Of a stretch of 64,000 bases of DNA, positions 9,901 through 15,900 are shown piece by piece. The DNA is taken from the NCBI RefSeq assembly GCF_058153355.1, contig NZ_CM177019.1; one strand, written 5' to 3'. Within the stretch, counting starts at the first letter, position 1. Every line of letters begins with the position of its first letter. A program made the position numbers.

Positions 9901-12900
9901 TGAATGTCCTGCTGCTGGAAGATACGGAAGTTCTGCCGTAACCCTGCCCGCCACAGCGGCGGGCTGATGCTCAGGGAATAACGCATCTGCCAGTCGTTGT
10001 TCTCACCGAGCTGCACCTCCGTCACGATACCGCTGACGTAACGCTGCGGGATATCACCCTGCCAGACCGTCAGCACCGCGCTCTTCTCCAGAAAATCCTC
10101 CGCCGTCAGGTCGGGCAGCCCGCTGGCGATATCCACATCCAGGATGAACGGCGTGCAGTGGTGCTGGTACAGACGGAAGCTCACCACCGCCGTCGCCATC
10201 TCCACGATACCGGCCACCGACAGCGTGAAACGTAATCCTTCTGCTGCCATATAAACCCCATAGCTACCGCACTCATAGTGCAAACCATACGGGCTTATAA
10301 GAAAGGCTTAAGTGAGATATCTGCCAGATAGCAACTATTAGGAAAATATTTATATACATTTCATGAATACATTCATTAATACCGAGATGTTTTTGTCTAT
10401 ATAAACAGAGCAAGCTAACGTCCTCACTCCATGAAAGAAACTACGTAGGGGCCTTTCGGTCCATAACAACTTTTTCCCTGTTATATCCTGACGTTCTGGT
10501 CTACTGGTGTAGTCATGCATATTGCAACGTTCTACCCATGGAAAGATAAATAAAGCCAGCTCTCCGCAAGGACTGAAGCGAGGTGCTTTCTGTCCATAGC
10601 TGCTTTTCGCAACTTACTCCTTAAGCCAACACTGAATTCCTTATGATTTGTCACAGTATGAACTTTTAATTTCATACATTGCTCTTTAGTCAATGGAAGA
10701 AAAATAAGCACCCTCTACCAAACGACACAAATAACCTGCAAATGGGAAATGACTTATTACTTAGAAATTTGCAGAGATATAAACCACGAGATATATCCAC
10801 CTTTTGAGTTAACAGTTACAGACGTTATAACATTATCTTTTATCCAGATATCAACAAAAAAGTCCTTACCACAATAAAGACATTCACAATATCCTTCAGA
10901 GATAAAGTTGTCCTTAAGTTTATTTCTGGTTATATTAATAAGTTTATCGCCAGGATTGTAATGTACTAAATTTCCAGATGGCACAAACATCTCAATTTCA
11001 CACTGTCCTGACGTTCCACATCGAGGGCAAACGCACCATGCTTTCAATAAATCATAATTCGACATTATATTACCTTAATTTATTTCACATCAGCATCCCC
11101 CCTTGCAAACCACAACTAAACTATTCCCATAAAATACAACGAGATAATTTTACTGTTAAACGTACATTCACAAAACTCAGGGGAAGAAAAATGACCATCA
11201 GTCAAAAATAAAGATAGTTTGCTTAGTGCGTAATCAATTGAATCAAGCGACAAGTATAATTTTATTACTAGTGAGTCCTGTATCAGGACATCATCTTCAT
11301 TGGGGGATTGTAAAAGTAATAAATTTTTATACGCTACAGGTGATCTGTTTTCCAGTCTAATAGGTTTGCTTGCTTCCGTCTCCAATAAACTATAAAGAGC
11401 ACAAACCATCTCATGAGCATCATCTTTATCAAAATATAAATGAAAACCGCCCAGAGATTTGTTAGCAATCATAATACGTTTCTAAAGTTGATTTAAAATT
11501 TTGCATTTCATGCCCATCAAAAAATAAATATTTTTTAACTACAAAGCAAACCTCACAGCGCATAGCGGTTAATATTCTACCTTAACGACTTTCATTCCTC
11601 TTTCAATCATACCATTAATTAATTGATAATACTCTTTATCCCCTATATCTACTATTAGAACATGGCCCGTAAGTTCATTGATGAATAAATACTCAGGTTC
11701 CTCATCTGTACCAGCATTTGAAATAACCCAACCAGGATCAGTACCGTCTATAAAAAACTCCCACTCTTTAAAATTAACACTCATTTAATCCTCCTTTTTA
11801 TACTCGCAAGAAAAGGAGAGTATCGTTTCTAACTCCGAAATAAAAGTATGATAAAAGACAGGACCTGACCTCATTTAATGTTATTTATCAATTCTTGATA
11901 GTTTTTGCAGATGCAGCGTAAACGCCTTATCTGGCCTACACAATCTTGCAAAATCAATATATTGCACGATCTGTCGGGTAGCAGCGATTCATTACTGTCT
12001 CGCCGCCCCCTAAGAACGGTACGTGCGAGTTTCCCCGCATACCGCTCAAGCCTTTATAAGCCTCCACCTTGTGGGAGACCAGCGTCATTACTATGTAGTT
12101 GTCGATGGCAGTTGGGATGGAGTAGGACTAAATTGCTCACATCATCGCTACCGCCAAGAGATTTCTTGAGCAAATGATGAACATTCCATCCTGTATCGCG
12201 ATTAATCGGTTGCTCACATAAAGGGCAGCGCGATCCTTGCCTTTTCCATATAGCGAGAATCCTTTTCTGCCCCTGTTGGGATTTCTTCCATGAGTAGTCC
12301 AGCCTTCTTTCGAAGTATGTTTCCCACTCGGGATCATATGGATTTGCCGTTCCCTTTATTTTTATATAGCGATTAATATGGATGTCGCTGGCCCGGGACA
12401 GAACATATTTCCTACCCTCCGGATCGACTCCATAAAATCGACCATGACACATTTTTATTGTCGTGTGGTACTTTCGGAAGATCCATCTCCGGCCTTTGCC
12501 GGGATGTCTCCTTCTGCACCACTGCCAGATTTTGCGCCAGATTTGGTTGTCGACATAGTTAAATGTCTCTGCCGATGCTACATGTTGGTGATAGTTTGCC
12601 CACCCGGTGATGATTGGATTAAGCAGATTTATTAGCACCCATGCAGGAACCGTTCGGTTACCTTCAATAGTCTCTCTGATCTTGCTAAGAAATTGTTTAA
12701 CGTTTTTCTTGGCTGGTCTGATTATGAGTTTTCTACCGAAGCGTCGGACGTGCTGCCCAAGGAAATCAAATCCGTCAGTAATGTGAGTGATGACCGTTTT
12801 CTCTTCGGATAACGTCAGCCCTCTTTCTGCAAGAAATGATTTCACCAACGGAAGAACATTCTCCTCCAGAAGTTCTTTCGACTTTCCGGAAATGATGAAA

Positions 12901-15900
12901 TCATCAGCATACCGGACGAAGTGAACCTGATGTTTCCTGAATGTTTTTGAGCGTTTCGGACCAAAGCGATTTTGCAGCAGTCTTTCCAGTCCATCCAGGG
13001 CCATGTTTGCCAGAACTGGAGATATGATTCCTCCCTGGGGTGTACCCGAGAGAGTTTTGCTGAATATGCTTTTTTCGATGATCCCGGCTTTCAACCAATT
13101 ACGGAGTATTTGCTTGTCCATAGGAATATTTTCAAGCAGCCACTCGTGGCTAATGTGTTCAAAGCATCCTTTAATATCGCCTTCCAGAACCCATTTCGAG
13201 GCGTTCCGGGAACTATACATATTACATACCTGTTGAATGGCGTCAGCCGTACATCGCGCTGGTCTGAAACCATAACTGTTGTGATCTGCATTAGTTTCCG
13301 ATACAGGCTCCAATCCCAGCAGATGCAGGGCCTGCATTGCCCTGTCAAGCATGACGGGGATTCCTAATGGTCTTTTCTTGCCATTAGATTTGGGTATAAA
13401 AACTCTTTTTAGCGGTAGGGGCTTGTACCCTTTTCGCCTGAGTTTGAATATCGCTTCCCATTTTGATTCTGGAGTACTCCAGATTTGACCATCAACTCCG
13501 GGGGTTTTACGCCCGCTATTTTCCGTAACTCGTTTCACCGCCAGTGCTCTGGCGCTGAATGAGCGAACCAGCAATCGTTGCAATCTACCGACTGTACGCC
13601 ATTGCTGGTTACATGCCGCCTTTGCGATTCTTGTCTGTATGGTTTTAACGTGTTGATGGCATTTCTTCCAGTTAATGGAATGCCAACCTTTTCCGTTGAT
13701 GACCGCAGTTACATTGTTAGATGTAATTTTCATACATGTCATCCAAAGAAACCTTCGCAGATGTTTCGCAATTAAAGACCAGATGGAAGTCAGCACGGTT
13801 TCCCGTTAAGGCAAATATTGAACCTCTATCCGCACGATTACAGTCCGGCTTTCGCTTTTTCCATCCTCCTTTACCCGCATTCTCATCAGTTTGCCTTACG
13901 GTGCCCCTGCCACTAGGGCGAGAATTCGGGCTTACCAAGTTCCGACCAACATACAAAGAACGGGTTAGGTTCTGTCTATCCGCCGGGGGAGTTATTGTCC
14001 ATGTATTCCCACTACGAACAGGAATAGCCTTACCCCTTACCTTTTGGTGCAAGCCTATCAGCATCTTTGGCTCGTTCTCTGTTACGACGTTTAACGACAG
14101 TTCACTATGTTAACCATACCGCCCAGCCTAGCGCTCTCGCCGCATGATGCTTGTAGCGATCAGGTTTTCTCACGATTAACTGAAGCAATATTTGCTAAGC
14201 TACATTGTCCCAAGGGCTTCAGACAGAGCCGTTACCAGCTTTGCCTGCCTCAGTAGGCTACAACTAATGGAATAGTTGGTTTTATATAAATAATTTATCA
14301 AAACAATATGTTGGACGACTTCTTGTCGCACTCGTAGACCAGATAAGCGTAGCGCATCAGGCAATCTAACGCCTGTCATCACCCCGCAAACTGCCTGAAC
14401 AGCGCCTTCCCTTTTACCAGTCGCGCGCCCAGCCAGCCGCCGAAAAGTGACAGCAGCAGCGCACCGCTACACGGCAACACAATCCACAATCGCCAGTCTG
14501 GCTCCCACGGGAAATCAAACACTTTCGATTGCAGTACCGCCAGCACCGTTTCCGCACCAATTGCGGCCACCAGGCCGGATACAAACCCGAGCATGGCGAA
14601 CTCACACCACAATGTCGTGCGCAGCAGTTTTTTGCCCGCACCGAGAGTGCGCCACACCACCAGCTCCTGATGACGCTGACGCATTCCCACCTGCACCTGT
14701 GCCAGCAACAGCAACATACCGCAGGCGGTGACCAGCACCACCATCACTTCCAGCGCCCGACTTACCTGCTCCAGCACCTGACCGACCTGTTTTAAAATCG
14801 CGCCAATGTCTAACAGGCTAATGGTCGGGAACTGGCGGTTGAGTTGCGTCAACATGCCGTTGCCATTCTCCCAGCGGAAACTGGTAAGCCAGCTCTGCGG
14901 TTGCCCGTCTAATGCCCCTTCAGGGAAAATAAAATAGAAATTAGGCCGCAGACTTTCCCAGTCCACTTTGCGCAGGCTGGTCACTTTAGCGCGGAACTCC
15001 TGGGTATCGCCCATAAAAGTCACGGTATCACCGAGGGCAACGTTTAAGCGTTTCGCCAGCCCCTCTTCCATCGACACTTCATCGGCTTTTGGCGGCCAGT
15101 TACCGGCGACAATCGGATTATGATCGGGCCGCGTATTTTGCCAGGTAAGATTGAGTTCGCGATTGAGCGCCTCATCTTCATTGCCTTCTGTCGGCTTGCC
15201 GTTAATCGCCGTCAGTCTCGCCCGCACCACCGGATAAAACGATTCCGGGACTATCTGATGTTCCGCGAGGAACGCTTTTAGCGGTGCTACCTGTTCTGTG
15301 GCGATGTTAATTAAAAAGTAGTTCGGGCTTTCTGGTGGTAGCTGCTGCTGCCAGCGGTCGAGCAGATCGCCACGCAGCACCAGTAGCAGTGCCAGCAGCA
15401 TAAAGGAGAGCGAAAATGCCGAAAGCTGGCTTAACGTTGACCACGGCTGACGTAACAGGCGGCTAACCGCCAGGCGCAGAGGCAGCGATTTCAGCGTCAT
15501 GCGGCGAAGTACATTCAGCAGCATCCAGCCCAGCACACCGCACAGCAAAGCCAGTACTACCGCGCCCGCCAGCACCGCCCAGAGCAGCATACTGCCGCCC
15601 ATCAGTCCGGCGAGCAGTAGCACAACCACCACACTGACAATCGGCAGATAAAACTTGAGCGGCCAGACGTTCGCTACCACATCATTTCGTAATACCCGTA
15701 AAGGCTGCGTTGCCAGCAACAGTCGGTATGGTCGCAGCCCTACCAGCAGCGAGATGACGGTCATGGTGCCGAGCGCCCACAGCCACGGCCAGAGGCTGGC
15801 AGGCGGTAGTGCGGCTGGCAGCACGGGTTTGAGAAGTACCATCAACACGTTTTCGAACAACAGACCTATAGCCCCGCCGGTAACGGCTGAAAGTACCAGC

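Follow-up and report, generated by a model that had tools for sequence, protein, structure and literature searches.

How does a group II intron come to lie inside a bacterial interspersed mosaic element (BIME), between two inverted repetitive extragenic palindromic (REP) units? We met this arrangement downstream of the ybbP gene in a 64,000-nt stretch of contig NZ_CM177019.1 (NCBI RefSeq assembly GCF_058153355.1), called the window below, and it raises the question of whether the intron seeks out REPs or reached its site by other means. Our comparisons point to a single recent ectopic insertion: an intron probably of the CL1/IIB1 type, at home in hok-family toxin genes, very probably entered by base pairing at a site that looks like its own target. 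The features that define the insertion site are listed here.

14331 to 11973, minus strand: complete group II intron of 2,359 nt, delimited by its termini, by the points at which homology with plasmid copies breaks off, and by empty sites
16793-14379, minus strand: ybbP, putative ABC transporter permease, open reading frame (ORF) of 804 amino acids (aa), orthologue annotated ybbP in E. coli N96, 118UI and GF4-3
14362-14334, minus strand: y-type REP in iREP orientation with a CTAC tail, within the 5' exon, sequence GCCTGATGCGCTACGCTTATCTGGTCTAC, recognised by alignment with canonical REPs of the window and with orthologous alleles
11972-11940, minus strand: start of the 3' exon, which is the L linker of a BIME-1; position +1 is the A at 11972 (presumed intron-binding site IBS3)
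11939-11907, minus strand: z1-type REP with GTAG at its head, opposite in orientation to the y REP, sequence GTAGGCCAGATAAGGCGTTTACGCTGCATCTGC, aligning with canonical REPs of the window

We joined 400 nt from each flank (800 nt) and searched 5,426 complete E. coli genomes for the empty site. The joined flanks matched ybbP in 5,417 of these genomes, and in four all 800 nt were found uninterrupted. Among the matches listed, every part-length match crossed the insertion point and went on for about another 65 nt. E. coli GF4-3 showed no difference from the joined flanks in the 76 nt inspected, and E. coli N96, which also has downstream genes in common with the window, showed a single one near the junction. 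The joined flanks thus correspond to intron-less alleles, and therefore the insertion is precise: it is exact, strain-specific and without target duplication. The original prediction had proposed to define the boundaries by comparison with an intron-less allele, and GF4-3 supplied one. Across E. coli, an uninterrupted BIME-1 unit is conserved 3' of ybbP. Matches of 68 nt to the 3' exon (among 1,127) were considered as other BIME-1 loci, and both of those inspected were the orthologous ybbP site.

The intron lies within the 3' untranslated region (UTR) of ybbP, in sense orientation. Counted from the ybbP stop codon (14381-14379), 47 nt lead to its first base, close to the 48 nt or so estimated at first, and no terminator-like site was found between the two. 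The reconstructed minus-strand site reads GCCTGATGCGCTACGCTTATCTGGTCTAC-GA^AGATCGTGCAATATATTGATTTTGCAAGATTGT-GTAGGCCAGATAAGGCGTTTACGCTGCATCTGC, where the caret, here and below, marks the insertion point. The two REPs stand tail-to-tail, and the insertion point falls between the y REP tail and the L linker, 2 nt past the CTAC tail. The 35-nt linker carries on the plus strand (11952-11964) a match, AATCAATATATTG, to the integration host factor (IHF) consensus WATCAANNNNTTR, and we regard it as a predicted IHF site. BIME-1 units consist of y and z1 REPs in inverse orientation around a long conserved L linker, often with an IHF site, and occur as a single copy per locus (PMC3333891); by its sequence, the reconstructed target is such a unit. 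In the window lineage the stem of the y REP is degraded, with ATCTGGT instead of the canonical ATCAGGC and a hairpin of -6.9 kcal/mol. The z1 REP gives a hairpin of -10.7 kcal/mol and a weak Rfam match to naRNA4, a REP-derived family, at 11901-11936. A repeat search with 6-nt seeds missed these hairpins because both stems are imperfect; they were found by alignment to canonical REPs and by folding. Canonical REP pairs of the window served as the reference for the decayed REPs beside the intron; full-length Rfam matches to naRNA4 (REP325/BIME-derived) mark such pairs at 19817-19894 and 54721-54798.

Where does this intron normally reside? In the plasmid collection a full-length copy was present in 20 records at 77-99.6% identity, mostly on IncF-type plasmids, with E. 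coli, E. albertii, Salmonella, Citrobacter and Enterobacter as hosts. We read the insertion junctions of 13 other copies, eight on plasmids and five on metagenome contigs. Eleven of them lay at the 3' end of a hok-family toxin gene, on the sense strand, and two elsewhere. The hok junctions fall three or four codons before the stop, at …(M/L)AYE^(S/A)(G/R/A)K-stop, in DNA reading …TGGC(T/C)TACGA^A(T/G)C…; the hok 3' ends were read in records L001 (2893-3039), L002 (2899-3039), L004 (1364-1534), L006-L008 and L012-L015. For 12 more plasmid records, including Salmonella and Enterobacter plasmids, a Hok-family gene lies under the match by annotation only. A megablast search of the complete E. coli genomes found the intron in 2 of 5,426, both times on a plasmid and in hok. 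Scanning with the first 24 nt of the intron gave no match in the species-representative genomes (GTDB) and five contigs in the JGI metagenomes, four with the intron in hok, one with it at another site and none with it in a REP. Neither the complete E. coli genomes nor the plasmid collection, the species-representative genomes or the JGI metagenomes yielded a second case in a REP. The normal homing site of this small enterobacterial family is the last few codons of hok-family toxin genes (hok, srnB/pndA-like) on IncF-type plasmids. In the literature searched, we found no description of hok as a homing site of group II introns, nor of group II introns in E. coli REPs. The original prediction had suggested insertion into, or targeting of, a REP/BIME structure; the intron-less alleles uphold the insertion, but the structure as target is not supported, given the hok location of 11 of the 13 other copies and the lack of any other REP insertion in these collections.

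The two sites outside hok are at L005:1456-1500 (…GGTCATGGCTTTCGA^) and L016:1938-1997 (…GTTGATGGCTTACGA^); both read …ATGGCTT(T/A)CGA^ and neither is a REP. The insertion in L005 is about 20 nt downstream of a CCCCCCGGGGGG palindrome. Plasmid pCRST030_1 (L001:1-202) carries, besides its hok-borne copy, the reverse transcriptase (RT) gene of a second, unrelated group II intron (ltrA) beside ssb, so that more than one intron family may reside in IncF leading regions.

The nearest copy interrupts an srnB/pndA-like hok gene of plasmid CP057208 and differs from the window intron at 10 of 2,359 nt (99.6% identity). The two target junctions are as follows.

CP057208 target junction: AACTCTGGCCTACGA^AGCACGT
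Window site junction: TTATCTGGTCTACGA^AGATCGT

Upstream of the insertion point (-12 to -1) they share 11 of 12 bases and downstream of it (+1 to +7) 5 of 7, and the core of the match sets TCTGGCCTACGA^AG of CP057208 against TCTGGTCTACGA^AG in the decayed REP tail of the window. REP tails (GGCCTAC) have 7 nt in common with the srnB-type target. Other alleles of the ybbP BIME, with a canonical REP tail, read ATCAGGCCTACGA^GG or ATCAGACCTACGA^AG and match the target less well than the allele of the window, GF4-3 and N96: they lose the -10 pair, and one of them also loses the A at +1. The same substitutions in the window/GF4-3/N96 lineage therefore decay the REP stem and improve the intron target. 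The target motif TGGYYTACGAA occurs once in the window. At one mismatch or fewer it has 3 matches against 3.5 expected, which is chance level, and therefore the window holds no reservoir of target sites. A sequence as long as this motif should, by estimate, turn up by chance at no more than a handful of places in a genome.

The proposed pairing partners at the window site are listed by coordinates.

14337-14332, minus strand: IBS1, CTACGA, target positions -6 to -1, complementary to exon-binding site EBS1 (UCGUAG)
14341-14338, minus strand: IBS2 core, TGGT, target positions -10 to -7, complementary to EBS2 (GCCA) with one G.U pair
14017-14012, minus strand: EBS1, UCGUAG, intron positions 315-320, in the 11-nt loop of an ATTCC/GGAAT hairpin
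14073-14067, minus strand: putative EBS2, GCCAA, intron positions 261-265, with candidate EBS2a at G259 (window 14073), assigned by complementarity to TGG(C/T) at -10 to -7

In the window, EBS1 and IBS1 would form Watson-Crick pairs at 6 of 6 positions, and EBS2 and IBS2 three Watson-Crick pairs and one G.U pair. Nucleotide 320 of EBS1 tracks target position -6 (G with C, A with T) in 10 of 11 copies, the eleventh having a G.U wobble, and this covariation across copies directly supports the proposed EBS1-IBS1 pairing. All 14 sites read conserve TGGC or TGGT at -10 to -7; we assigned the putative EBS2 from this conservation and from a position homologous to that in the intron T.el4h. Wherever the 3' exon could be read, in 10 copies, the target has A at +1. 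At the BIME the contacts proposed for EBS1, the EBS2 core and +1 are all satisfied, and mimicry at the level of primary sequence would explain the site without structural targeting. Intron position 259 is G or A among the copies, followed by A and then by EBS2, the context defined for EBS2a in IIB1 introns (PMC8643678). G at this position (alignment column 264) occurs only in the window and in the nearest plasmid copy. The partner of EBS2a would be Watson-Crick in 4 of 11 copies if IBS2a is position -12 and in 7 of 11 if it is -13, and neither position fits all.

The inserted element is a complete group II intron, apparently functional, with a probable IIB1-type ribozyme. At its 5' end it reads GUGCGAC from 14331 (GUGCG, 14331-14327, minus strand) and at its 3' end ...CUACCCGAC, finishing at 11973; GUGCG and AC agree with the conserved termini of such introns (5' GUGYG, 3' AY). 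Homology between the window and the copies on two E. coli plasmids, at 97% identity, breaks off a few bases from these termini. Its parts are the following.

14279-14132, minus strand: domain I (D1) core, the 5' part of the ribozyme, Rfam RF02012 (group-II-D1D4-7), 112.5 bits over the full model 1-151 (gathering score 34)
12049-11973, minus strand: domains V and VI (D5-D6), Rfam RF00029, 65.5 bits (gathering score 40)
12047-12014, minus strand: domain V, a 34-nt hairpin with AGC triad, 2-nt bulge and GAAA loop, from RF00029 and the D5 model RF04356
12010-11973, minus strand: domain VI with a bulged adenosine at 11979, from the RF00029 alignment and the minimum free energy (MFE) fold
13733-12054, minus strand: intron-encoded protein of 559 aa plus stop, with RT, maturase/X and HNH domains (Pfam RVT_N, RVT_1, GIIM and HNH, all full length)

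RF02012 and RF00029 gave the sole intron matches of Rfam in the window. The A at 11979, unpaired in the MFE fold and 6 nt before the intron 3' end, is the presumed branch point, and the MFE fold of D5/D6 has a z-score of -5.5 against shuffles. A consensus fold of nine copies (77-100% identical) gave a long-range closing stem of D1, then D2 and D3, with compensatory change at 10 base pairs. The stem of the EBS1 hairpin is paired in 100% of cells and shows one compensatory change, A-U to G-C; 79 of 500 shuffles do equally well, so that this test lends it weak support. Around EBS1 and EBS2, the RNAalifold MFE structure buries parts of both in local helices, and we replaced it in the EBS1 region by the canonical ATTCC/GGAAT hairpin. 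The original prediction had described an intact RT-maturase-HNH ORF and a recognisable domain V hairpin between inverted REP-like palindromes, as in a BIME. The Rfam and Pfam matches and the D5 of the MFE fold bear this out, the strand is now clarified as minus, and both palindromes, the y and z1 REPs, had been placed at the correct coordinates. The domains also proved to fold, as it had asked: the D1 closing stem, D2 and D3 in the nine-copy consensus and D5/D6 in the MFE fold.

The 559 aa of the protein are counted from the start codon of RefSeq copies; the mechanical ORF, from an upstream GTG, has 580 aa. The translation contains the RT motif YADD and scores 369.5 bits against NCBIfam TIGR04416, the equivalog of group II RT/maturases, with a cut-off of 300. 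The protein of the nearest plasmid copy differs from it by one residue and by a premature stop five codons early. The closest solved structure is the RT of T.el4h (6ME0; E 2.4e-187, 627 bits, residues 15-551 aligned), and other solved RTs score far lower, LtrA (ML-class) at 138 bits and GsI-IIC (class C) at 131 bits. T.el4h and EcI5 are IIB1 introns with RTs of the CL1 lineage (PMC8643678), and the window protein would belong to this lineage too, judged by its nearest solved relative rather than by a phylogeny. No published name for the intron was found in the literature searched, which excluded the reference intron database. E.c.I11 and the F33 plasmid intron are different elements.

The sequence comparisons show the anatomy of the intron, its boundaries and empty site, hok as the homing site of its family, the EBS1-IBS1 covariation and how alike the two target sites are; from them we infer the insertion pathway, the current activity of the intron and its co-transcription with ybbP. 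A copy nearly identical to the intron in the srnB/pndA-like hok gene of CP057208 would have inserted once, recently and precisely, into the BIME-1 after ybbP. Excised intron RNA with its bound protein would have recognised the site, EBS1 pairing with CTACGA, EBS2 with TGGT and, presumably, EBS3 with the A at +1. The RNA would then have reverse-spliced into the strand that is sense for ybbP, and target-primed reverse transcription would have made the DNA copy. Given the sense orientation in the ybbP 3' UTR and the lack of a terminator, read-through transcription from ybbP would carry the intron, which could be spliced out, and the ybbP coding sequence is untouched. The window ORF is full length, D5, D6, EBS1 and EBS2 are unchanged relative to other copies, and mobility of the window copy is plausible.

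Several observations weigh against this account. Between the BIME and the hok sites there is no similarity in the distal 5' exon (-13 to -25), the region that the protein reads in related introns; the BIME therefore falls short of a full homing site, and insertion there would be inefficient. The partner of EBS2a is ambiguous, and in the window G259 faces T at -12 or A at -13, neither a Watson-Crick pair. A private change, G178A, breaks one D1 base pair in the window copy, and current activity is not guaranteed. Our view of the host genome covers 64 kb, short of any donor plasmid or other copies. The insertion is also a single event, to which REP secondary structure or the replication-fork context may have contributed modestly.

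The alternative nearest to this account keeps the same pairing logic and lets the intron enter single-stranded DNA at a replication fork, independently of its endonuclease, with the nascent lagging strand as primer. The lack of conservation at distal 5'-exon positions read by the protein is typical of ectopic events. The sense strand of ybbP is, we assume, co-oriented with replication, as in E. coli K-12, and the target strand of an intron in that sense strand would be the lagging-strand template; the weakly negative GC skew of the window on the plus strand is compatible with this. However, the HNH domain is intact, and IIB1 introns with EBS2a are suited to invasion of duplex DNA (PMC8643678). 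The skew signal is weak, moreover, and a single event yields no strand statistics. Of the two pathways, endonuclease-dependent insertion into duplex DNA has the intact HNH domain in its favour, and the orientation is compatible with the replication-fork pathway, which we consider unlikely.

A broader reading would make BIME-1 units a recurrent chromosomal 'safe harbour' for the plasmid-borne family, because REP tails (…GG(C/T)CTAC) resemble by chance the Ala-Tyr-Glu codons at hok ends (…GC(T/C)TACGA). If true, it would give hok-homing introns a route from plasmids to neutral chromosomal sites; we think it rather improbable. Improbable too is that the element is an immobile relic whose ORF looks intact by coincidence, or that homologous recombination brought the allele, already invaded, from another strain. 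G178A, and the identity of only about 96-97.5% between the window and complete E. coli genomes, speak for this reading. But the 559-aa ORF is full length with all domains, and it is the nearest plasmid copy that has the premature stop; D5, D6, EBS1 and EBS2 are identical to those of other copies, and the event, judged by just 10 differences from the plasmid copy, was very recent. Had the allele come in by recombination, the nature of the element would be unchanged.

Recognition of the REP/BIME hairpin by the intron or its lineage, with BIMEs as the true target class, is highly improbable: against the superficial IIC geometry of an insertion 2 nt past the CTAC tail of a palindromic unit, the 7 nt common to REP tails and the srnB-type target, and the precedent of group II introns beside REPs in P. 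putida KT2440 (2 of 9 copies; PMC1525189) stand the other copies read, with 11 of 13 in hok and none in REPs, the larger collections, which add no REP insertion, the two other ectopic sites (L005, L016), which are not REPs, the decayed REP stem of the window site, an EBS2 whose partner would be the 3' arm of the REP stem, where a folded hairpin would compete with recognition, and an intron that has EBS2 and an endonuclease (En) domain and is, by its nearest solved relative, IIB1/CL1, not IIC. The intron is not a REP-targeting element, because no recurrent REP insertions exist among the copies found, and no new mechanism is required.

What, then, does single ectopic insertion by a hok-homing intron imply? 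Introns of this class are already known, as are ectopic insertion by them and BIME-1 units. The locus offers a clean natural example of ectopic site choice, in which sequence directly reveals the empty site, a likely donor-type site and the EBS/IBS covariation. A decayed REP can become a target by accident, and REPs as structural targets are not thereby shown. The insertion probably has no consequences for ybbP; in the DNA it divides the BIME-1, parting the y REP from the predicted IHF site and the z1 REP. The hok-homing habit, apparently undescribed in the literature searched, places a retroelement inside a post-segregational killing gene, where it could affect toxin expression, and is of interest for plasmid biology and for the choice of targetron scaffolds.

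Some further features of the window lie outside this argument. DNA of low GC content (35-38%, against about 51-55% in neighbouring core genes) occupies 1-8000 and 10500-12000, downstream of a VgrG/TssI gene (7845-10283, minus strand), and small unannotated ORFs at 10757-11065, 11116-11472 and 11569-11784 have no NCBIfam match; the stretch looks like a type VI secretion system (T6SS) effector/immunity island. In most E. coli a dinQ-like toxin gene and mnmH follow the ybbP BIME, unlike in the window, and therefore the BIME borders a strain-variable region. A giant ORF of 6,224 aa (29140-47814, minus strand) in a GC-rich stretch (59-61%) is followed on the same strand by three ORFs of about 300-430 aa (25803-29136), and together they may encode a large repetitive adhesin with its secretion genes. 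Rfam also matched the small RNA sroB at 55731-55814. The core genes of the window are about 96-97.5% identical to the best of the 5,426 complete E. coli genomes, and the window lineage is probably a divergent Escherichia outside the collections compared.

Among known systems, the intron is closest to T.el4h (Th.e.I3) of Thermosynechococcus elongatus and to EcI5, IIB1 introns with a CL1-lineage RT and an En domain; its protein has the same RT-X-D-HNH architecture and aligns end to end with the T.el4h RT. The RNA resembles T.el4h and EcI5 in its GUGCG...AC ends, 34-nt D5, bulged A in D6 and EBS1 in a terminal loop, and in T.el4h, too, N-A precedes EBS2 at position number 259, where its EBS2a is C259 (PMC8643678). 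Unlike T.el4h and EcI5, the window intron belongs to a family that homes to hok-family toxin genes, and its IBS2 core (-7 to -10) abuts IBS1, whereas the usual arrangement is a 5-bp IBS2 with IBS2a at -14. To EcI5 (E.c.I5, plasmid pO157) there is no close relation at the DNA level, and the megablast matches in E. coli genomes were not pO157-type records. Class C (IIC) introns recognise stem-loops of terminators or attC sites and lack EBS2 and the En domain, and IS1397 and IS621, DNA transposons or recombinase elements, insert systematically in E. coli REPs. With both groups the window intron shares a position next to or within a palindromic unit; it differs from the former in having EBS2, an En domain and a probable CL1 protein, and from the latter in that its REP insertion is the only one among all copies found. 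The target resembles other BIME-1 units of E. coli in its tail-to-tail y and z1 REPs, its 35-nt linker with a match to WATCAANNNNTTR and its single copy at the locus, but its y REP stem is degraded and the unit is split by a 2.36 kb intron. The event itself is most like the ectopic retrotransposition of group II introns such as Ll.LtrB and others (PMC3522654, PMC7938551), a single off-site insertion in which IBS1, IBS2 and +1 are kept and distal positions are not; it differs in that the site lies within a repeated element, a BIME-1, and matches the target unusually well, at 11 of 12 upstream positions.

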